Assembly: GCA_048938105.1 (NCBI GenBank)
Contig: JBHLMN010000001.1
Span: forward strand, 384,001 to 448,000
Length of the DNA: 64,000 nt
Direction of reading: 5' to 3'
Origin: Promethearchaeota archaeon
GTDB taxonomy: Archaea; Asgardarchaeota; Heimdallarchaeia; Hodarchaeales; Hodarchaeaceae
In this document: in pieces, positions 1,225 to 62,137 of the stretch
Layout of the letters: every line of letters starts with the position of its first letter
How positions within the stretch are numbered: position 1 is the stretch's first letter
Translations under genes and position numbers: made by a program
The notes under the pieces: generated by a model
Databases searched by the model: none
What the model was told of the DNA's origin: nothing
The model's input: only the letters and a program-made list of their open reading frames with translations

Positions 1225-3645
1225 GTGATTTCTCCTTTGATTTTGCAAAATGAGCTAAAAAATATTTTATTTGAGATTCCTCCAGAACAACTTCTTGCAG
1301 GTGCCATTTGCATTATTTTAACTATAATTTTCCTTCTAGAATTGAGAAAATATTTGAAATATCACGCTTTTCCTGACCTTATGGAACTGTCAGGGATCGG
1401 AGTTATGGCCTCTGGGCTTTTTACCATAACTGGAGATATCCTTCTTGCAGGTTTAGCGGGCATCTTAGCGCTAATGATTATTGGATCCTTCGAAGTACGA
1501 GAAAATCCCATTTGGTTTCGAATGATGGTGACTTTTACTATTAGTTATGGGTTTTTTTTCTTAATGGTTGCTTTAGGATTTCTAACGACCAAAGTCTTTT
1601 CATCATTAGGAGATACTATTAAAGAATTTTTAATTTCTCTTGGATTATCTTCTAGCATCGATATACAACAGTTTTTTGTGGGAATTGGATATAATCTAGT
1701 CCTTTGGATCATGATTTTAACCGCATTCTTAGTGTTTGGTAAAAAATTTATTGTCGTAACTCGATTCATAAGTCCCCAGATGGTTTATCTTGTACTTTAC
1801 CTAGTTGCATTATTGATAATCCTACAAATGGATCTTCCAGAAATTGCAAAATATTTCGCTATTTTTGCCGTCAATATTCTTATTTATCTTGTTTCAGGTC
1901 CATTACTCTCTTTTTTATTTGGAATACAACCTCTAGAGGATGAGAGAGTAAAAAAAATCATCAATGACGTGCAAACGAAGATTCAAACTCCGATTCGAAA
2001 AATCGGCATTGTTAAAGCACCTATCCTCAATGCTTTCGCATATGGACCATGGTTTGATCAAAGAATTGCTTATATTGCCTCAGATTTAGATCAATTTACA
2101 GATGCGGAGATTCGTGGAATAACTGCTCATGAATTAATACATGTTCAAAAAAAACATACCCTTTGGTTGTTAGGCCTTACTGCAGTTGAACTAGTAATCA
2201 AGGCCGCAATTGATGCGCCTTCTACATATTGGGAATTTGTATTGGGGATGAGTCAAACTTGGGATTTCTTGAGTTTCTGGTTATTCAACATTGCATTATT
2301 TGCAATCTTACTCACTTTTGTTAAAATAATGGAAGGTCAGGCTGATAAAACCACGAGAGAAAAAGGATTTGGTTTGGATTTGGCTGAATCTTTATATCGA
2401 TTAGAAGGGTTTTACTATGGAATTGCAGGAGAGATTGGATTCAATACACAATTAATGACTGGAAAAATACGATCTAAAGATGAGAGTATCCGTTTTATGG
2501 GAGATCAGGCATTCTATCTTTATCGTAATCTGGCTCCAGGTCGTATGACTTGCATTATGAATCTGATAGCATCACATCCTCTTACATCCATCCGTCTAGC
2601 ATTGCAGCTAGACCATTCCATTGGAGCAATTAAAGCTGGATTTATGATATGGTTTCTGCTAATTCCAGGATTACGAAAAAGAACAATAAGAAAACTACAG
2701 AAAAGCCACCAAGAGATGAGTGAATTACTATCTTCTAAATATTCCAAAGATTTTGGTTCAATTAATGATTACGTAGAAATAACTTTTGAAGAGGATTGGG
2801 CTAAGTACTTTGTGGGACATCATGTGATTGCAAAACCCTGGTTATATGAAGGTGTTACATATTGGGGGAAAATAACTAATTTTCATCAGACCGAGAATAT
2901 AGTTTCTCCCATTGAATTCGAAATGGAGATTTCTAATGGGAAAACAATCAGAATCCCAAAGAGTGACTATACCTTTGTCATAGCTGAACCACAACACAAA
3001 TACTTTACAAAAAAAGGGAATATGGTTACTTTAGATAAAGTGCAAATTGAAAAAGGAAAATTCCGAAAATTCCATTTTACTGAAAATGGAAAAAAAACTA
3101 CATCACGCTCTATAGGATTGGATACATCTGAATTTAAGCAAGAAACTTATTGGTTGGTCTATAAAAATGGCATAATCCAACCTTGGAGTCTGAAAGAGGT
3201 TCATTTAGCTACACATTTCAGAGATACTGTTTTCTTGTTTGAAGATATTACTCAAAATGAATATCAATATCAAGGTAAAGAACTAGTTATTTCATCTCCT
3301 CCTTTAGTGCAAATGATTAATGCAAAAAATTGGTCACAAGAAAAAAGATTTTTCAAACTTCTACAAAAACTGAATGAACCATTTGTCCTCTATGATAAAG
3401 AAGACATCGACATTGGTGCTCCTTGTAAAGTAAATACCATATCCGATGATGATACCATAGAACTATTGGAAGGAAGAACACTCCGTACAATTAAACCGAA
3501 CATGATTGATGCATTAATTTTAGAATATCCTTTTTATCTTATTAATTTCCGAAAAGAGATGGGATTTGGTAACGTTCTAACATTGAAATTGTTTAATAGA
3601 GGTCTGAAGACAAAATATGTAGGTCTCAATAGCTATCTCGCTTAA
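1225..3645 (+). CDS. M48 (HtpX/Ste24) family membrane zinc metalloprotease with long C-terminal extension
   Basis: Multiple TM helices, NAFAYG, AHELIH (HExxH), EGQAD, SHPLTSIR motifs; ~300-aa soluble C-terminal region. Confidence 0.85.
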   Translation: MISPLILQNELKNILFEIPPEQLLAGAICIILTIIFLLELRKYLKYHAFPDLMELSGIGVMASGLFTITGDILLAGLAGILALMIIGSFEVRENPIWFRMMVTFTISYGFFFLMVALGFLTTKVFSSLGDTIKEFLISLGLSSSIDIQQFFVGIGYNLVLWIMILTAFLVFGKKFIVVTRFISPQMVYLVLYLVALLIILQMDLPEIAKYFAIFAVNILIYLVSGPLLSFLFGIQPLEDERVKKIINDVQTKIQTPIRKIGIVKAPILNAFAYGPWFDQRIAYIASDLDQFTDAEIRGITAHELIHVQKKHTLWLLGLTAVELVIKAAIDAPSTYWEFVLGMSQTWDFLSFWLFNIALFAILLTFVKIMEGQADKTTREKGFGLDLAESLYRLEGFYYGIAGEIGFNTQLMTGKIRSKDESIRFMGDQAFYLYRNLAPGRMTCIMNLIASHPLTSIRLALQLDHSIGAIKAGFMIWFLLIPGLRKRTIRKLQKSHQEMSELLSSKYSKDFGSINDYVEITFEEDWAKYFVGHHVIAKPWLYEGVTYWGKITNFHQTENIVSPIEFEMEISNGKTIRIPKSDYTFVIAEPQHKYFTKKGNMVTLDKVQIEKGKFRKFHFTENGKKTTSRSIGLDTSEFKQETYWLVYKNGIIQPWSLKEVHLATHFRDTVFLFEDITQNEYQYQGKELVISSPPLVQMINAKNWSQEKRFFKLLQKLNEPFVLYDKEDIDIGAPCKVNTISDDDTIELLEGRTLRTIKPNMIDALILEYPFYLINFRKEMGFGNVLTLKLFNRGLKTKYVGLNSYLA

Positions 3646-3682
3646 AAACCACAATGATTCTTAAATAAGAAAATAGAAAACA

Positions 3683-4930
3683 TTAATCCTTGGTTTCTAA
3701 TACTTCAGTTGCTATATCTTTAGCTCGTTGGCGCCTTTCGCTAAGAGATTCGGTAGATTGAGTGAAATTTTTCCTGTTTAAACTCATCTCTTCCTCTTTC
3801 TCTGTTATATCTGCTTTTAATACTGCTATATTCTCCTCACATTGGATTAGTAGATCATTAATAGATTTAAACTCCGATGATCCTTCCAGCTCTTCTTTTT
3901 GGGCTAAATGATCTTTCCATTCATTTTTCTTTGAATCCATTTTTCCTTCCTGCAAAGCATTTAGCTCATGAGTTAGATTATTGATATTTTTCTGTTTTAA
4001 ATGGAGATCCGTTTTACCAACCTTGATTAATTCCTCCATGAGAGCAATAATTTCAGGATTACCTTCTTCCTCTTCAAGAAAACTCTGAACAGGATTCTTT
4101 TCATAAGCCAATGCTGTATTTACTATTCCAAAATCACCTGAAATTGATCCACGTTGAATTTCACGGGCATATTTCTTGAATATTTTCTTAAACGAATTTA
4201 AATGCCTACCTATTTCAATTTCCAATTCTGTCATTCTGATCCCGCTTTTCCGTGAAACTTTTATCGAAGGATTCTCTGATAAACGGGTCTTTTCTTTCTC
4301 CGCTTCTGTTAACGACTCTTCAAGTGTTTTTAATTCAGTTTGAATTTGATTTTGTTCTTCTTTTAACTTTGATATTTTTTGTAAGAGATCTTTAACATCT
4401 GTATTTAAATCAGCTAAATCTTCTAGAGCTTTAATTATACGATATTCCTCTTTTTGAAGATCACGTAGTTTAGCTAGTTCAGATCCTAACTTACTGATAG
4501 GATTATAAATTGTCCGCTTTTTGAGCATAAAATCAATACCCATAACCGAGTCAGCGGCATTTTTCTCCTTATTAATATCATTTAACAATCGAGACACATC
4601 TCTAATGAATTGGTTCAACTCAATTGAAGTCAACCTTTTTGATGCCTCTGGAACCTGAAAATCTAAAAACTGTTTATCAATAGAATGTGCTAATGCATTC
4701 ATAACCTTTAAAGACTCAAATTGTGATCGAAATTTTATTTTCTTCATCCCTTCTTCCGTGAGTTTTGGTTCCGTTTCCTCAACAAGTTTTTTACATCCTT
4801 CTTTCACTTTCTCGGAATTTTTATGCATTGATTGAAGGAGCTTCTTGCTTTTTTCATAAGCTAACTGGATTTCTTTCTTTCTTTGTATTTTAATTGATTC
4901 AGAAAGACCTTTAATTTCATCTTCAGCCAT
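3683..4930 (-). CDS. Long coiled-coil protein of unknown function
   Basis: 415 aa, K/E-rich heptad pattern, no NTPase motif. Confidence 0.7.
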   Translation of the reverse strand: MAEDEIKGLSESIKIQRKKEIQLAYEKSKKLLQSMHKNSEKVKEGCKKLVEETEPKLTEEGMKKIKFRSQFESLKVMNALAHSIDKQFLDFQVPEASKRLTSIELNQFIRDVSRLLNDINKEKNAADSVMGIDFMLKKRTIYNPISKLGSELAKLRDLQKEEYRIIKALEDLADLNTDVKDLLQKISKLKEEQNQIQTELKTLEESLTEAEKEKTRLSENPSIKVSRKSGIRMTELEIEIGRHLNSFKKIFKKYAREIQRGSISGDFGIVNTALAYEKNPVQSFLEEEEGNPEIIALMEELIKVGKTDLHLKQKNINNLTHELNALQEGKMDSKKNEWKDHLAQKEELEGSSEFKSINDLLIQCEENIAVLKADITEKEEEMSLNRKNFTQSTESLSERRQRAKDIATEVLETKD

Positions 4931-4938
4931 TAAACCAC

Positions 4939-5340
4939 CTATTTCTTTGAATAATAAATCGATGAAAGAAAAAGGTCTTCTAAACGTGTTATCATCATTT
5001 CTAGGGGAGGAAAAGCATTTCCTTTTTTCTTAAATCCGACAATGAGATGATTAACTTGCCTTTCATTCGAAATTATTTGCAAACTTTCAGAGGTTGGGGT
5101 TATAGCTTCCCATATCTGAGGAAGAATCGCACACATTTGCTCGAACTCATCCATTTTCATTTCAACAATAGATCCCTCACTTCTTTTCAACCCTGTCAAT
5201 GGAAAACCATTATTATCACTGATGAATGAAGCTATCATTTGATGTTTCTCTCCTCCCCCCGTCATTTGTTTCGATAAAATTGCTCTAAGAGATAAACGCA
5301 TCTGGTCTTCTAAATTTCGTCCCATTTTTGATTTCATCAA
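4939..5340 (-). CDS. Roadblock/LC7 (MglB-like) or profilin-like domain protein
   Basis: N-terminal helix, then ASFISDNNGFPL beta-hairpin, helix and three strands, the pattern typical of roadblock folds. Confidence 0.55.
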   Translation of the reverse strand: MMKSKMGRNLEDQMRLSLRAILSKQMTGGGEKHQMIASFISDNNGFPLTGLKRSEGSIVEMKMDEFEQMCAILPQIWEAITPTSESLQIISNERQVNHLIVGFKKKGNAFPPLEMMITRLEDLFLSSIYYSKK

Positions 5341-57322: not shown

Positions 57323-58009
57323 TCATTCAGAACTCTCAGGTGTAAGAATAACCCAGTCACTCATTCTGAGATTAAGCATCATATCTTCACCATTAGGACA
57401 TTCAATCCTCAAAACTAATTGTTTTTTGCTCTGTAATATGACTTCAGGATGCAAGCATCCCTCGCGTAATTTTTCTAGTAAGAAGCGAACATAAGAATCA
57501 GAGATCGCAGTCAAAGAACCATCTTGTAAGTTTTCAGCCATCTGTCCAGGATATATTTGCACTTTACGACCACTACGTTTTGTTATTATCAGATCAACGT
57601 TTTCTAGTCTATTTAGATGATATCTAACTGTATCATGATGAACAGATGGAGTTATTCCTTGAGCAATTTGGCTTTGAAAGGCACCAGGGTTGTTTAATAC
57701 ATAATTAAAGATTTTATTGGCTGTTTTTGGCCTTAAGACAGCGAAAATCCGCTCCGCTTCAGCCGATCGAAGCCCTGCTGGGTAGTAAATGCGTTTTCCC
57801 GCATATTTCAGTGATTTAATAAGATGATCTTCCTCTAAACGCTTCAAATGCCAATTTAGAGTTCCTTGAGGTAGGTCTAGATATTTAGCCAAATCAAAAA
57901 AATACGAGCCAGGATTTTCTGCTAGGATTGAATATATTTTCCTTCGAAGTGGGTGTAATAAAAGACTAATTTCTCTGTCATCAGAAGCTAAGGTCATATT
58001 ATGATTCAT
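57323..58009 (-). CDS. Tandem winged-helix (ArsR-like, COG3398-type) transcriptional regulator
   Basis: Two repeats of R.KI...I..NPG....A......T..(W/Y)HL.RLE. Confidence 0.85.
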   Translation of the reverse strand: MNHNMTLASDDREISLLLHPLRRKIYSILAENPGSYFFDLAKYLDLPQGTLNWHLKRLEEDHLIKSLKYAGKRIYYPAGLRSAEAERIFAVLRPKTANKIFNYVLNNPGAFQSQIAQGITPSVHHDTVRYHLNRLENVDLIITKRSGRKVQIYPGQMAENLQDGSLTAISDSYVRFLLEKLREGCLHPEVILQSKKQLVLRIECPNGEDMMLNLRMSDWVILTPESSE

Positions 58010-58340
58010 CTTCTTCGTAGGATTTTTGTTTAGCGATAGGAAGCGTTCAATGAAGCTCTTGAATAAGAACTGTCTATTGGGGCTCTTGTGTAGCCCTCGG
58101 TTTTTATTCTTTCTTTTTTAAAGATTTGTACCTGAACCTGAATTAACAGAATATTTGGGTGAATAAAGGCTTTTAATGGTATTGTTAGTCTCTTTGAAAA
58201 TTATAACTGGAATTCTTTATTTAAAAATAAATGACTGATATACTTTAGAAGAATCAAAAAGTAGAAAATGAAAAAGGGATGCCCACTTCTTAATCTAAAT
58301 TAATTGAGGAAAAAAGGAAAAAAGTGAGTCAAAAAGGAAG

Positions 58341-58760
58341 TTAGGCTACAAGTGTGGTTATATCTACCTTACTTACGCCTTTAATTTCCGCTAGCTCATC
58401 TTTCAGCTGTTCTTGTGAGATTGTTAGGTCACTGGAATCCAAATAGCCTTCATAGGTACAGCTATCTTGTGTGAAACACAGCCCTGTGCTGTAAAGGGTC
58501 TTTATTTTACTTCTCATAAAGACAACACCCAACTCTTGCAAGAAGTCAGGTGATAGCTCACCGATTTCTATAGCAACTTTAACAACTTCAGGACTTTTAG
58601 TCGGAATAATCCTAATGATTTTTGTCGAAGGAGCAAGGATCATTACAGCAGAACTTTCCTCAACATCCTTGGGGCGTAAGGTTTCAAGAAAGTCAGCAGG
58701 AAGGGAAATCGGTTTTGACTCTTGAAGTTGAATCATTTTTGCGATTGTAACAGCAGACAT
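58341..58760 (-). CDS. AbrB-like N-terminus + ACT-domain regulatory protein
   Basis: ISLPADFLETL swapped-hairpin pattern; SPDFLQEL...L.EIKGVSKV ACT pattern. Confidence 0.55.
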   Translation of the reverse strand: MSAVTIAKMIQLQESKPISLPADFLETLRPKDVEESSAVMILAPSTKIIRIIPTKSPEVVKVAIEIGELSPDFLQELGVVFMRSKIKTLYSTGLCFTQDSCTYEGYLDSSDLTISQEQLKDELAEIKGVSKVDITTLVA

Positions 58761-58893
58761 TTATCTATTATCCTCCGCTAATTATTCTAATTTTCATTAT
58801 GATCTGAAGGGGTTTCTTATGCTTTGAGCTGCTAAGACTAGCAAATCTCATTTACAAACAATTTGGATTGCTTTCTATTTATTAAGGTTTTTA

Positions 58894-58935
58894 TTTTTGC
58901 GAGAATTTCGAATTTTTTTGCGAGAAATTCGAATT
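58894..58935. repeat. Tandem 21-bp direct repeat TTTTTGCGAGAAWTTCGAATT x2
   Basis: Copies at 58894-58914 and 58915-58935 with one mismatch. Confidence 0.75.
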
Positions 58936-59485
58936 GAACCTTTGCCTCATAATATCAAAAATCTTTAAGATGTGGGACAGTTAGGTGCTTAGGTTGAGAC
59001 TAGAGAGGTAAGTACTTCAAAACTAATTTTGTGTTGAAAAACCTATTAAATATCTTCACATTAGGATCCAATCCAGAATCGGTCATGATTAAACACTTAT
59101 TTTTATTTATTTGCCCAAAAAAAACAATAATTCTACTTATAGCTAATACTATCTCTGGAAGATTATTTAAAAATCGGTAAATTTCAGCTTTAATAGTTTA
59201 ACTTCAATTAATTGTATCTTAACTCAATACATAGAGAAAGAAGTGATTCATGCTTCATATGGCTGAATATTGATTTTTACTGCAAATATAATTCTGTATT
59301 CTTGGGATAAGCATACAAAATCATCTAAAAGTGTTTGAATTTATTCGTCATCTTTCTGTTGTGCTAATGATTATTTCTATACTTTCTTCTTATTGTCATG
59401 TTGGTTTAGTGATGAAACAAAGATGCTCATGTTGCATATCGATAAGAGTTCTAAGGATAACTGCAGCTAATCCGAAAATAACTTA

Positions 59486-60220
59486 ATGAAAGGTTATTTT
59501 TATAAACCACTCATTAAAGCTAATCTTTTTGATGAAACATCACCCCTTTTGTTGCTTTTCTCAAGTGTAAGAAAAAAAGTGGGGAAAATTATCATGGTAT
59601 TAGATAGAGACATTCGATTGACGATCCTTGGTCATACTGGTGTAGGAAAAACCAGTCTAATCAAGCGATTGAAAGGAGAAGATCCTACTTCGACAGAAAG
59701 AACTTTAGATATAACTGTAGAGAAAAAGAAAATAACTCTACTGTCGAGTAGTAAGCATTCAAGATTATCCTTTGAGCGATACAGAAAATATAACGTGATT
59801 GCAGTAGATAATCCTGGAGATTTCAAACTTCGCCGTAAGTGGCGCGAAGCAATGAGAAAATACAAAACAGACGGAATTTTATTTATGTTAGATCCTATCC
59901 AAGGAGTAGAAACTCAAAGAGTGGCAATGGAAGATTCATTCAATTATTTTCTTGACAGTTTGAGCTTAGATCCTGATAAAGCTGATAGAAAAGCAAGAAA
60001 AAAGAAAACTCTTTTTTATTTTGTAATCAATAAGATGGATACAATTGATAATGATAAAAAGAAAGCACGTGTGTTTTTAGAGAATTTCAATATCGTTATC
60101 CAAGACTATAAAATGACTTTTCCTTTCGCTAAATTCTTAGAGGCATTCATTAGTGTTCATAAATCCCCCTACGAGGAAATTGATGCAATTTTTGAAAAAT
60201 GTAAACGAGCATTATATTAG
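59486..60220 (+). CDS. Small GTPase, Ras superfamily, unassigned subfamily (start likely ATG at 59594)
   Basis: GHTGVGKT, T in ERTLD, DNPG, NKMD, ISVH. Confidence 0.85.
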   Translation: MKGYFYKPLIKANLFDETSPLLLLFSSVRKKVGKIIMVLDRDIRLTILGHTGVGKTSLIKRLKGEDPTSTERTLDITVEKKKITLLSSSKHSRLSFERYRKYNVIAVDNPGDFKLRRKWREAMRKYKTDGILFMLDPIQGVETQRVAMEDSFNYFLDSLSLDPDKADRKARKKKTLFYFVINKMDTIDNDKKKARVFLENFNIVIQDYKMTFPFAKFLEAFISVHKSPYEEIDAIFEKCKRALY

Positions 60221-61058
60221 AAATTATTGGAAAATGTCTAGGATGGAGAAAATTCGACAAGTAATTGTTCGGGATACTCCTGAAAGAGGACTCGATGTCG
60301 TAGCTTCTAATTTGCATGAGAGTCAAACACAAAATATCTCTTTATTCATTCCGGACGAAGAACTTTCTGACTTCAATGAAGTTTTTTTGACTAAATTCCA
60401 ACATCCTTCAGGAAATATTATCCTACGATTCACATTTGATGATGGAATAGACCACTTTGGACGTCAATCAATAAAAACTCACACATTAATCATTGATAGC
60501 TCTTTCTATAATGAAAAAACAGCTCAGTATTTTATCTCACCATTAATAAATGGATCTATGAATATAGAAGATAATAATATTTTAAAACTGAATGATTTTG
60601 AAACACTAGATCCATATCCTATATCTTCGAAATTTGTTGAACTTGTTTTAACCAAGAAGCAAGTTCAATTGATGAGTCAAGAAAAAATAGATCCTTTGAA
60701 TCTTATTCAAATATTTGGAGCTTTAGATCGTGTAATACCTCCCCCGTTAAATCTAACATTTTCTTTTCAAACAATTGTCTCTCCTAGTCATAAAAAAACT
60801 TTAAGGAAACATTCAATAGTTTATTCATTAGAAAAATTACCCCATTCAGAAGTATTCGAACAGATTCAATTGAAGGAATCGGAGTTTACTTCTATTCAAG
60901 CAATATCAAACTGTATTTCAGATCTGTCCTTGCTCAGGCAGCTACAAAAACAGTTATTCCTAGGGATCCCCGAAAAATGGCTAAATCTAAGACTACAATG
61001 GCGTTTTGGGATCAAAAGATTTTCTCATATTCGAGAGAACCTGAATACCTATTTCTAA
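60153..61058 (+). CDS. GTPase-associated protein, GAP1-N/M or DENN-like (start likely ATG at 60234)
   Basis: GLDVVAS, DHFGRQSIKTHTLII, IPPPLNLTFSFQT motifs; 13 nt downstream of the GTPase stop. Confidence 0.5.
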   Translation: MFINPPTRKLMQFLKNVNEHYIRNYWKMSRMEKIRQVIVRDTPERGLDVVASNLHESQTQNISLFIPDEELSDFNEVFLTKFQHPSGNIILRFTFDDGIDHFGRQSIKTHTLIIDSSFYNEKTAQYFISPLINGSMNIEDNNILKLNDFETLDPYPISSKFVELVLTKKQVQLMSQEKIDPLNLIQIFGALDRVIPPPLNLTFSFQTIVSPSHKKTLRKHSIVYSLEKLPHSEVFEQIQLKESEFTSIQAISNCISDLSLLRQLQKQLFLGIPEKWLNLRLQWRFGIKRFSHIRENLNTYF

Positions 61059-61061
61059 CTT

Positions 61062-61277
61062 TTAAGGAATAACTTCTTTATCTTCAAGAATTTTACGAAT
61101 GCAATGAACTACTTCTGGATCAGTATCCTCCAAAACAGCTCTCTTTAAATGATTTTTACTTATTAAAAAATTGTATTTAGCAAGATATTGAGCAGCAAAC
61201 ATCCTTTCGAATTTATCAGGATCCTTCTGCAATTTCTCAATCATTAATTCAACATTTTCTTTTTTTGTCTTTGTCAA
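61062..61277 (-). CDS. Small HEAT/PBS-lyase repeat protein
   Basis: L..DPDKFER..AA..L and L.DTDPEV..I repeats. Confidence 0.65.
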   Translation of the reverse strand: MTKTKKENVELMIEKLQKDPDKFERMFAAQYLAKYNFLISKNHLKRAVLEDTDPEVVHCIRKILEDKEVIP

Positions 61278-61375
61278 TAGACTCAGTTGAACTGATTCAT
61301 ATTTAAATAAAATAAGTTCTTGTCATGCGAAGGAAATAAGAATCTAAATTCTTACTAGAACGTGCACATATTAAT

Positions 61376-62137
61376 TTGAAGATATCTTGTCTTGTTGGAC
61401 ATAAAGCTCAAAATAAGGTTAGAAATGTGAATCTACAATCATCTTTTTCTACCGAACCCGAAAAAATCGATCACATTTTAACAAGATTATTGCAGGCAAC
61501 AAAAGAACTAAAAGATCCAATAGTGACGAGTATATCTAAAACTCGAAAAGATCCTTTTCTAATACTTATAGCTACTATCTTGAGTTTGAGGACGAAAGAT
61601 GAATTAACATACAAAGCAAGTCAGCTACTCTTTGCCCGAGCAGATACACCTGCTAAAATACTCGCAATTCCTCTTGAGGAACTTGAACAACTCATCTTTT
61701 CTGTAGGTTTTTATCGTCAAAAAGCAAGAACTATTCATGAATTATGTAAAAGACTTATTGATGAATATAATGGTAAAGTTCCTGATTCTCTAAACGAATT
61801 GATAAGTTTTAAAGGTGTGGGTCGCAAAACTGCTAATTTAGTTATTACAAAAGGATTTGACAAACCAGGGATATGTGTTGATGTTCATGTGGCTCGTATT
61901 ACTCAACGAATCGGTATCGTACCAATCAAAGGTGAAAATGACAATAAACCTATCTTTCATAATGCAGATCAGGTTGAAATGATTTTGAGAAAGATTTTAC
62001 CAAAGAAATGGTGGATACCAATTAATGATATTCTAGTGAGGTGGGGACAAAATATATGTACTCCAATCAGTCCTAAATGCAGTCAATGTGTCATTTACGA
62101 CTCCTGTTTGAAAATTGGTGTTCAAAAGCATCGTTAA
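61376..62137 (+). CDS. nth: Endonuclease III
   Basis: LIATILS, GFYRQKA, HhH GVGRKTAN, VDVHV, C-x6-C-x2-C-x5-C. Confidence 0.95.
   Translation: MKISCLVGHKAQNKVRNVNLQSSFSTEPEKIDHILTRLLQATKELKDPIVTSISKTRKDPFLILIATILSLRTKDELTYKASQLLFARADTPAKILAIPLEELEQLIFSVGFYRQKARTIHELCKRLIDEYNGKVPDSLNELISFKGVGRKTANLVITKGFDKPGICVDVHVARITQRIGIVPIKGENDNKPIFHNADQVEMILRKILPKKWWIPINDILVRWGQNICTPISPKCSQCVIYDSCLKIGVQKHR

Follow-up and report, generated by a model that had tools for sequence, protein, structure and literature searches.

DENN proteins are already known from Asgard archaea, and so is the prediction of a GTPase-DENN operon: Liu et al. (2021, bioRxiv 10.1101/2020.10.19.343400; Nature 2021) predicted an operon that encodes a Roadblock protein, a Rab-like GTPase, and a DENN protein, and proposed that the DENN protein works as a GEF (guanine nucleotide exchange factor). 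Later papers list DENN domains among the Asgard eukaryotic signature proteins and describe the DENN fold as common throughout the tree of life. According to Tran et al. (PMC10933270), genes for Asgard small GTPases do not generally share an operon with Roadblock, longin, or TRAPPC3 genes, so it is hard to match a GTPase to its GTPase-activating protein (GAP) or its GEF from the genome. Here we analyze a pair of genes from a member of the Hodarchaeales, which encode an atypical small GTPase (P0001) and the protein just downstream of it (P0002, the partner). They lie in a 64,000-nt window (C52:384001-448000, ~34% G+C) of a 5.85-Mb assembly. We propose, with a probability of roughly 0.7, that they form a two-gene operon of a lineage-specific small GTPase and a cognate, three-lobed partner of ~270 aa that has a DENN fold and is related to the bacterial GAP1 proteins.

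GAP1 proteins belong to bacterial systems that are defined by DO-GTPases, a third component (FNIII or GASH), and effectors (Kaur, Burroughs, Iyer and Aravind 2020, PMC7159879; PF20012, PF20013, and PF20014), and the GTPase-GAP1 pair was said to have "no close relatives elsewhere" (Kaur et al. 2020, PMC7159879). In the literature that we searched, GAP1 is not connected with longin or DENN domains, and PMC7159879 has zero mentions of either. A longin plus DENN architecture is also found in the GAP complexes FLCN-FNIP, GATOR1 (NPRL2-NPRL3), and C9orf72-SMCR8; in FLCN, NPRL2, and SMCR8, a GP motif before β2 "spatially neighbors the arginine finger" (PMC12290439). Finally, the prokaryotic small GTPase MglA shares an operon with its Roadblock GAP, MglB, which has a Roadblock/longin-type platform.

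The two genes and their main elements are:

59594..60220 (+): small GTPase P0001, 208 aa (Pfam matches, AlphaFold2 model, Foldseek)
59630..59653 (+): GTPase G1 (P-loop), G13-HTGVGKT-20; GxxGVGKT is invariant in the GTPase alignment (A2)
59807..59821 (+): GTPase G3 and start of switch II, D72-N-P-G75-D76; D72, P74, G75, and D76 do not vary among 26 sequences
60029..60040 (+): GTPase G4 (guanine specificity), N146-K-M-D149; N146, K147, and D149 are invariant
60234..61058 (+): partner P0002, predicted to be DENN-fold and GAP1-related, 274 aa from the first ATG; conserved start at 60243, 271 aa
60252..60551 (+): predicted N-terminal longin (u-DENN) lobe of the partner, residues 7-106, the likely equivalent of GAP1-N
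60462..60464 (+): codon for Arg77 of the partner, in the motif D73-x-x-G-R77-x5-H83; candidate catalytic or contact residue
60627..60827 (+): predicted central α/β, c-DENN-like lobe of the partner, residues 132-198, with D165-R-x-I-P169-P and F176-S-F-Q-T180
60855..61055 (+): predicted C-terminal helical, d-DENN-like lobe of the partner, residues 208-273 (DSSP; alignments to DENND1A/B)

The locus resembles the operon of Liu et al. in that an Asgard small GTPase gene adjoins the gene for a DENN module, and in both cases the partner is proposed to be a dedicated regulator. In contrast to that operon, neither the window nor any other locus that we examined in its own family has a Roadblock gene. 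Also, their operon is reported from "most Asgard archaea" but the families described here are limited to four families of Heimdallarchaeia, and P0002 is undetectable with the Pfam DENN models (the likeness to their proteins is judged by description).

Conservation and distribution of the pair

The first ATG of the partner (60234) lies 13 nt past the GTPase stop, which is the spacing given in the original prediction. Because homologues begin at ATG 60243 (MEKI..., 271 aa), we take this as the conserved start, and the gap from it is 22 nt. In the window's own family (f1, which is represented by one genus in the genome set used), the two genes are adjacent and on the same strand in 17/17 of the genomes that hold both, with gaps of ~15-30 nt. 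At the window and at two loci that share its whole neighborhood (L001 and L005), the GTPase gene is followed by the partner gene on the same strand, with gaps of ~11-100 nt. The same order recurs in three unrelated neighborhoods (L004, L007, and L009), where the GTPases share 66, 55, and 51% identity with that of the window, as compared to only 25-27% for the partners.

One objection is that the two genes are mere neighbors through recent common descent and have no functional link. Indeed, the whole f1 neighborhood (Zn-ribbon, helix-turn-helix [HTH], 139-aa gene, endonuclease III, and SIS) is syntenic, so that adjacency within f1 alone is weak evidence, and the genes are unlinked in another family, f4. 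However, the pair recurs in the three unrelated neighborhoods, where the partners can be as little as 25% identical, the distributions of the two families match over 200+ Asgard genomes, and the fold of the partner and its GAP1 relatives are GTPase-associated wherever they are known. A chance association through shared descent thus seems quite improbable. Comparing the sequences in this way suggests that the GTPase and the partner are a functional, physically interacting pair, and we consider this likely.

We surveyed 82 species-level genomes of the class, which include families f1-f7. The partner family was found in 16/20 genomes of f1, 1/2 of f2, 1/1 of f3, and 28/31 of f4, and the GTPase family was found in 19/20 of f1, 1/1 of f3, and 27/31 of f4. 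The partner family was absent from f5-f7 (0/27), and the GTPase family was not found in f2 (0/2) or in f5-f7 (0/27), although these family profiles may miss more divergent relatives outside f1-f4. In a 200-genome sample of the Asgard phylum, and at the thresholds used, neither family was found outside these families (~150-170 other genomes) except for two weak partial matches to the partner profile. One of these is in genus g41, which also has GAP1-N2 proteins. A phmmer search with P0002 against 1.8 billion representative proteins gave 29 matches, of which the plausible named ones are from metagenome-assembled genomes (MAGs) of Heimdall or Hodarchaeales archaea. (Over both proteins, the labels of named homologues are mostly Hodarchaeales, Hodarchaeota, or Heimdallarchaeota, with a few Thor- or Promethearchaeota MAGs. 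Two long repeat proteins among the phmmer matches, P0196 and P0207, are spurious, with CarboxypepD_reg / Ig repeats.) Both families are restricted to a few families of Heimdallarchaeia (f1-f4 of one class). The pair had been described as possibly primordial, but because neither family extends beyond a subclade of Heimdallarchaeia, it appears to be a lineage-specific branch rather than an ancestral state.

The synteny survey that was suggested along with the original prediction thus gave adjacency in f1 and at L004, L007, and L009, and it also gave three observations that weigh against an operon of two cognate proteins. First, in f4 both families co-occur (27 genomes) but are never adjacent. 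Second, in the f3 genome (L019, G001:C29, 2867-5385), the partner (+) and the GTPase (-) are convergent and a receiver-domain gene lies between them. Third, in one f1 genome (G065; L024, G065:C146 577-1580), a deletion has removed the partner gene and left the GTPase gene intact. In place of the partner gene is a 143-nt spacer, which may retain a trace of its 3' end and is followed by the gene for a mini-protein (described below); no other copy of the partner was found in this genome, which is 88% complete. G065 is a natural "partner knockout," and because it keeps the GTPase without the partner gene, the partner is not strictly indispensable.

We considered whether the neighbors of the GTPase in f4 and f3 could be cryptic DENN-like proteins, but they are a CxxCxxCC protein and the receiver-domain protein. 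The latter is a 297-aa response regulator that is encoded directly downstream of the GTPase, and the arrangement recalls that of MglA / MglB / RomR.

As for Roadblock genes, there are none in the window or at L001, L005, L007, or L009, and Robl_LC7 is found only at L004. There (2289-5264), the order is an Arf/Ras-like GTPase, the GTPase, the partner, and a Robl_LC7 protein (141 aa), which is the layout nearest to the operon of Liu et al.

The predicted fold of the partner

P0002 has no match in Pfam, NCBIfam, or PADLOC. Across the family set (the window protein and 25 aligned relatives, or 26 sequences; the broad alignment is A3), there is no Pfam match apart from a C-terminal KOW domain, and neither P0002 nor any of the 26 members matches the Pfam DENN, uDENN, or dDENN models at E ≤ 1. 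PF02141 (DENN) matches nothing in the whole genome, and likewise nothing in the control genomes, and a profile search of PDB sequences with the partner family gave a chance match only.

An AlphaFold2 model, built with an alignment of 26 homologues, has a mean predicted local distance difference test score (pLDDT) of 91.3 and a predicted template modeling score (pTM) of 0.90. In this model, the longin lobe has the order strand-strand-helix-strand-strand-strand-helix and is followed by an α/β lobe and then by a helical lobe. The first matches from Foldseek against the PDB were the DENN domains of DENND1A and DENND1B, which were crystallized with Rab35 (E = 1.5e-6, probability 1.0). The match to DENN modules is full-length, with alignments to DENND1A/B that extend to residue 272-274, and it was repeated in an independent all-against-representatives search. 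Lower matches were chains of FLCN-FNIP2 and C9orf72-SMCR8, DENND10, the longin domain of Lst4, and bacterial TagF. Judging from the model, P0002 appears to have the complete three-lobed longin/DENN/d-DENN fold of a DENN module. The original prediction had noted a layout like uDENN plus cDENN and had named an unrelated fold as the outcome to look out for; what Foldseek returned on top was the DENN fold.

The eukaryotic DENN modules of DENND1A/B (Rab35 GEF; PDB 3TW8 and 6EKK) and DENND10 (PDB 8P0V) are, like P0002, associated with small GTPases. They differ from P0002 in that they are only 6-10% identical to it, are ~100 residues longer, and match the Pfam DENN/uDENN/dDENN models. Also, the client here, P0001, does not belong to the Rabs, nor does it have the catalytic Gln.

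The three motifs that first drew attention to the partner are present and conserved in its family: G19-L-D-V-V-A-S, D73-H-F-G-R77-x5-H83, and P169-P-P-L-x3-F176-S-F-Q-T180. Q9, R77, P103, and P169 are invariant even among members of 20-25% identity. The conserved residues include Q9, G19, K54, D73, R77, and H83 in the longin lobe and D165 and P169 in the c-DENN lobe. Arg77 lies in the β4-β5 loop of the longin lobe and is invariant in 26 sequences down to 20% identity. G19, at the start of β2, is nearly invariant, and the residue after it is L, Y, I, or H, but never P.

About a third of the f1 orthologues, but not the window copy, end in a C-terminal KOW (SH3-like) domain (PF00467, ~55 residues). 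These proteins have 329-355 aa (e.g., P0038, P0047, P0062, and P0033; the loci are in G048, G049, and G052-G055). The KOW domain might anchor the module on RNA, on the ribosome, or on RNA polymerase.

The GTPase

The description of P0001 as an atypical small GTPase, with DNPG as G3 and SVH in the G5 position, holds: the G1, G3, G4, and G5-position motifs are invariant or nearly so in the 26 homologues of alignment A2, which is the source of our statements about the conservation of its residues. S187-V-H occupies the G5 position, and S-V/A is kept in the family. Asp76, which is invariant in the 26 sequences, stands where Ras-like GTPases have the catalytic Gln. Also invariant are the basic switch II helix DNPGDFKLRRKWREAMRKYK and the β2-β3 insert (E61, R64, and Y66). 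A longer open reading frame (ORF) from 59486 (244 aa) was considered for the start of the GTPase but was rejected, as near-full-length homologues align from MV(L/F)DRD.

P0001 passes the Pfam cut-offs of GTP_EFTU, MMR_HSR1, SRPRB, and Arf with modest scores, and the nearest PDB sequences are EngA/Der and Arl2 (E ~ 1e-3). With its AlphaFold2 model (pLDDT 83.7), Foldseek found Rap1, Rab33, Rab6, KRas, and Arl to be equally good matches (template modeling score [TM] ~0.7, 16-17% identity, probability 1.0). So, the model indicates a protein with the Ras-superfamily fold and no clear subfamily. In a tree, the P0001 family is on a very long branch, apart from neighboring Arf/Ras-like GTPases. The pair is like MglA-MglB in that a prokaryotic small GTPase shares its operon with a partner that has a Roadblock/longin-type platform. 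In contrast, P0002 is predicted to have two further lobes, and P0001 is not MglA-like but belongs to a separate, long-branched family.

Every f1 genome has a second paralogue of the GTPase (~224 aa, ~52% identical; G000:C6:57909-58577, or L020 3910-4584), which nests inside the operon-type clade of the GTPase tree. It has no DENN-like neighbor (L002 and L020). A 269-273-aa gene that is convergent to it was considered as a DENN-like partner and was ruled out, as the protein is unrelated. The paralogue may share the single DENN-like partner.

Remote homology to GAP1

The original prediction linked the motifs of P0002 to the GAP1-N and GAP1-M domains. There is no direct match to a Pfam GAP1 model for P0002 and its 25 aligned relatives, and searches of the genome with PF20013 (GAP1-N2) and PF20014 (GAP1-M) gave nothing at E ≤ 10. 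However, the link is supported at the profile level. PF20013 is over its cut-off (24 bits) in 6/200 of the sampled Asgard genomes, and in two of these proteins, which are short, the matches are 25.2 bits for GAP1-N2 and 26.9 bits for GAP1-N1 (L027, 327 aa) and 29 bits for GAP1-N2 (L025, 336 aa). These two proteins are each encoded directly downstream of a GTPase of ~230 aa with weak similarity to DO-GTPase1. A hidden Markov model built from the partner family (A3) scores the short Asgard GAP1-N2 proteins at 22.5 and 16.6 bits. Comparison of the partner family profile with the short proteins by hhalign gave probabilities of 89-91% (E = 1-2e-6, 187-189 columns), and the strongest of these alignments had a probability of 91% and an E value of 1e-6 over 187 columns, as compared to E = 0.09 for the reversed-sequence control. 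The alignments span residues 6-202 to 6-205 of P0002, with Q9, D73-x-x-x-R77, H83, and P169 aligned. The DxxGRx5H block also aligns with four longer GAP1-N2 proteins (E = 2e-5), of which one falls just short of a GAP1-M match. In the GAP1-M/C region, the alignment to the short proteins reaches residue ~202, via IPP...FSFQT. The short proteins are themselves below the PF20014 cut-off of 24 bits, and L028 alone is near to it, with 22.8 bits.

From these profile comparisons, P0002 appears to be a remote homologue of GAP1, and we would assign it to GAP1-N as remote homology only. DxxGRx5H is a real signature that is common to the P0002 family and the GAP1-N2 proteins.

More broadly, GAP1-N2 matches in Asgard genomes outside of the Hodarchaeales (L025-L030) come in short (327-336 aa) and long (>600 aa) forms. 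At L025, L026, L027, and L030, the GAP1-N2 gene is directly downstream of a GTPase with weak similarity to DO-GTPase1/2 and a DxxGE-type switch II. Because GAP1-N2 genes adjoin DO-GTPase-like GTPases at these four loci, the bacterial "DO-GTPase-GAP1" pair occurs in Asgard archaea too. The GTPases beside the Asgard GAP1-N2 proteins have DxxGE or DxxGxE where P0001 has DNPGD, and this acidic residue in switch II agrees with what is described for DO-GTPases, a "conserved glutamate in Walker B." These GAP1-linked GTPases are only ~17% identical to P0001.

P0002 thus has several features in common with the bacterial GAP1 proteins: its gene lies directly downstream of that for a GTPase, it is predicted to have three globular parts, it carries DxxGRx5H in the N domain, and its GTPase is acidic where Ras has Gln. 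In contrast to the bacterial systems, P0001 is a single small domain, with no Zn ribbons or paired paralogues and one copy in the operon; here there is no third FNIII/GASH component and there are no effectors; and the locus is conserved and housekeeping-like.

These differences bear on whether the pair could be a cut-down biological conflict (defense) system of the GAP1 type, as in multicellular bacteria. It would fit with this that the partner is remotely homologous to proteins with a GAP1-N2 domain and that the gene order is the GTPase and then the GAP1-like gene. However, there is no DO-GTPase: P0001 has no match to PF19975 or PF19993 at E ≤ 1 and is a single domain of 208 aa without Zn ribbons. 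The window pair has no effector, FNIII, or GASH gene alongside it, so the earlier suggestion of a minimal module without the effector genes of bacterial systems fits the neighborhoods that we examined. PADLOC was negative for the partner. Also, 17/17 genomes have just one copy of the module, its locus amid DNA-repair and sugar-isomerase genes is fixed, and the P0001 orthologues share 76-93% identity; defense islands are far more variable. We consider a role in defense to be very improbable, and because of the single copy, the fixed locus, and the high identity of the GTPase orthologues, we describe the pair as a housekeeping-type module and not a defense system.

Another, broader idea is that the N/M/C domains of GAP1 are the eukaryotic longin/DENN/d-DENN module, so that the pair in Hodarchaeales would be its minimal, effector-free form, that DENN regulators, folliculin-type GAPs, and GAP1 would come from one ancient pair, and that Arg77 would act on a GTPase with an acidic residue in place of Gln. 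We hold this only tentatively.

GAP, GEF, or adaptor

If the two proteins interact, then the partner would bind the GTPase and either control or read its nucleotide state. Among the ways that it might do so, we lean slightly, and with little conviction, towards a GAP-type mechanism with Arg77 as the candidate catalytic residue. First, GTP hydrolysis by P0001 probably needs help in trans because Asp76 replaces the catalytic Gln, and the partner has an invariant arginine, Arg77, in the β4-β5 loop beside Gly19. Second, the conserved positions of P0002 are concentrated in the longin lobe. Third, folliculin-type GAPs carry an arginine in what may be the corresponding loop, as does the genome's own folliculin-like protein (PF11704), which has GP before β2 and ARG in the β4-β5 loop. 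Like these longin GAPs, P0002 has a conserved Gly at the start of β2 and an invariant Arg in the neighboring β4-β5 loop.

Other observations weigh against a GAP. P0002 has GL, GY, or GI instead of the GP motif of the folliculin / SMCR8 / NPRL2-type GAPs. When its longin lobe was compared to the longin domain of the folliculin-like protein by hhalign, the alignment was not significant (E = 0.12) and R77 was offset by one position. And DENND1A/B, which are the best full-length structural matches of P0002, are GEFs. P0002 also differs from the longin GAPs in lacking a match to PF11704, and in the known GAP complexes two such proteins form a heterodimer, while there is only one gene here. A prediction of the complex of the GTPase and the partner had a score of 0.00 ("no answer"), which is not evidence either way.

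The folliculin-like protein has 449 aa (L022:619-1968 [-], or about G000:C52:295244-296593; 28.5 bits for PF11704) and is conserved across the Hodarchaeales, with 74 homologues. A phmmer search with it against the PDB did not reach FLCN. A second PF11704 match in the genome (G000:C52:42106-42354) is inside an open frame of 8857 aa, outside the window, and PF06218 (NPR2) has no match in the genome.

A second possibility, which we rank just after a GAP, is the classical DENN mode, with the partner as a GEF that would grip switch I/II of the GTPase between two lobes and expel GDP, as DENND1B does on Rab35. This role was proposed by Liu et al. for Asgard DENN proteins, and it would be that of the best full-length structural matches, which are the GEF domains of DENND1A/B crystallized with Rab35. 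Also, there are conserved residues in both lobes (Q9, G19, D73, R77, and H83; D165 and P169) that would fit an inter-lobe cleft. However, conservation is highest at an arginine on a loop of the longin lobe, which is typical of GAPs, there is no sequence similarity to the Pfam DENN or uDENN families, and a GTPase without the catalytic Gln (D76) would still require a GAP, of which none is encoded nearby. Also, small GTPases of prokaryotes often need no GEF for nucleotide exchange.

Third, the partner could be a nucleotide-state-dependent adaptor or effector: a constant scaffold that would sense the state of the GTPase and give its output via the C-terminal lobe, as has been suggested for bacterial GAP1. 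Consistent with this are the remote homology to GAP1, which in bacteria bears variable output domains at its C-terminus, and DENND10, a top structural match that is a structural subunit of the Commander complex. But the window copy and most orthologues have no extra domain, and outside of f1 no target gene is conserved beside the pair, so we view this as unlikely. For orthologues with a KOW domain, RNA, the ribosome, or RNA polymerase would be the output. The KOW domain on ~1/3 of the f1 orthologues, the DxPG type of G3 in the GTPase, and its best Pfam matches (GTP_EFTU and MMR_HSR1) would fit with an adaptor or effector, but KOW is a generic SH3-like module and nothing ties the pair to ribosomal genes.

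Other features of the locus

The pair is flanked by genes for an HTH regulator, a 139-aa protein, a 71-aa mini-protein, endonuclease III, and a SIS protein. Two features close to the pair are:

59497..59506 (+): TTTTTATAAA, a candidate archaeal TATA box ~90 nt upstream of the GTPase start codon, read from the sequence
61062..61277 (-): convergent 71-aa helical mini-protein, a conserved neighbor in f1 only

The mini-protein had been described as a convergent HEAT protein. It is a real ORF, which ends 3 nt after the partner gene and is kept in 16/20 of the f1 genomes, always abutting the partner, but the HEAT label rests on a sub-threshold match to HEAT_2 (E = 0.0086, 16.8 bits versus a cut-off of 27.7) and is weak. 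The mini-protein was not found in the other families of the class, and it is not linked to the pair at L004, L007, or L009. (A 71-aa ORF at L004 was considered as a relative but is not convincing, with E = 0.02.) It may lie outside of the module.

The 830-nt intergenic region between the GTPase gene and the divergent 139-aa gene contains a pair of near-identical, 16-nt direct repeats, GCGAGAATTTCGAATT and GCGAGAAATTCGAATT, which are 21 nt apart (58899-58935). The second repeat contains a 10-nt palindrome, AATTCGAATT. This repeat pair may be an operator site. Finally, a search of 58000-61600 with Rfam gave a sub-threshold, snoRNA-like match only, inside the GTPase ORF (27 bits versus a gathering score of 50), which we take to be chance.

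Significance

The pair overturns nothing that is already established. What differs from the known systems is a GTPase family that is restricted to Heimdallarchaeia and has Asp in place of Gln, together with a minimal, 271-aa partner that is invisible to Pfam; the lack of Roadblock in the operon of this family, the occasional KOW fusion, and the profile-level bridge to GAP1 are also different. The operon gives a one-to-one match between a 208-aa GTPase and a 271-aa protein with a predicted DENN fold, in the order that is thought to be closest to eukaryotes. Both proteins are small and apparently soluble, and so are fit for direct biochemical and structural work. If the link to GAP1 is true, then the pair would be a minimal system for probing the role of the conserved arginine, and a eukaryotic signature module, DENN, would be tied to a widespread bacterial GTPase-associated protein.

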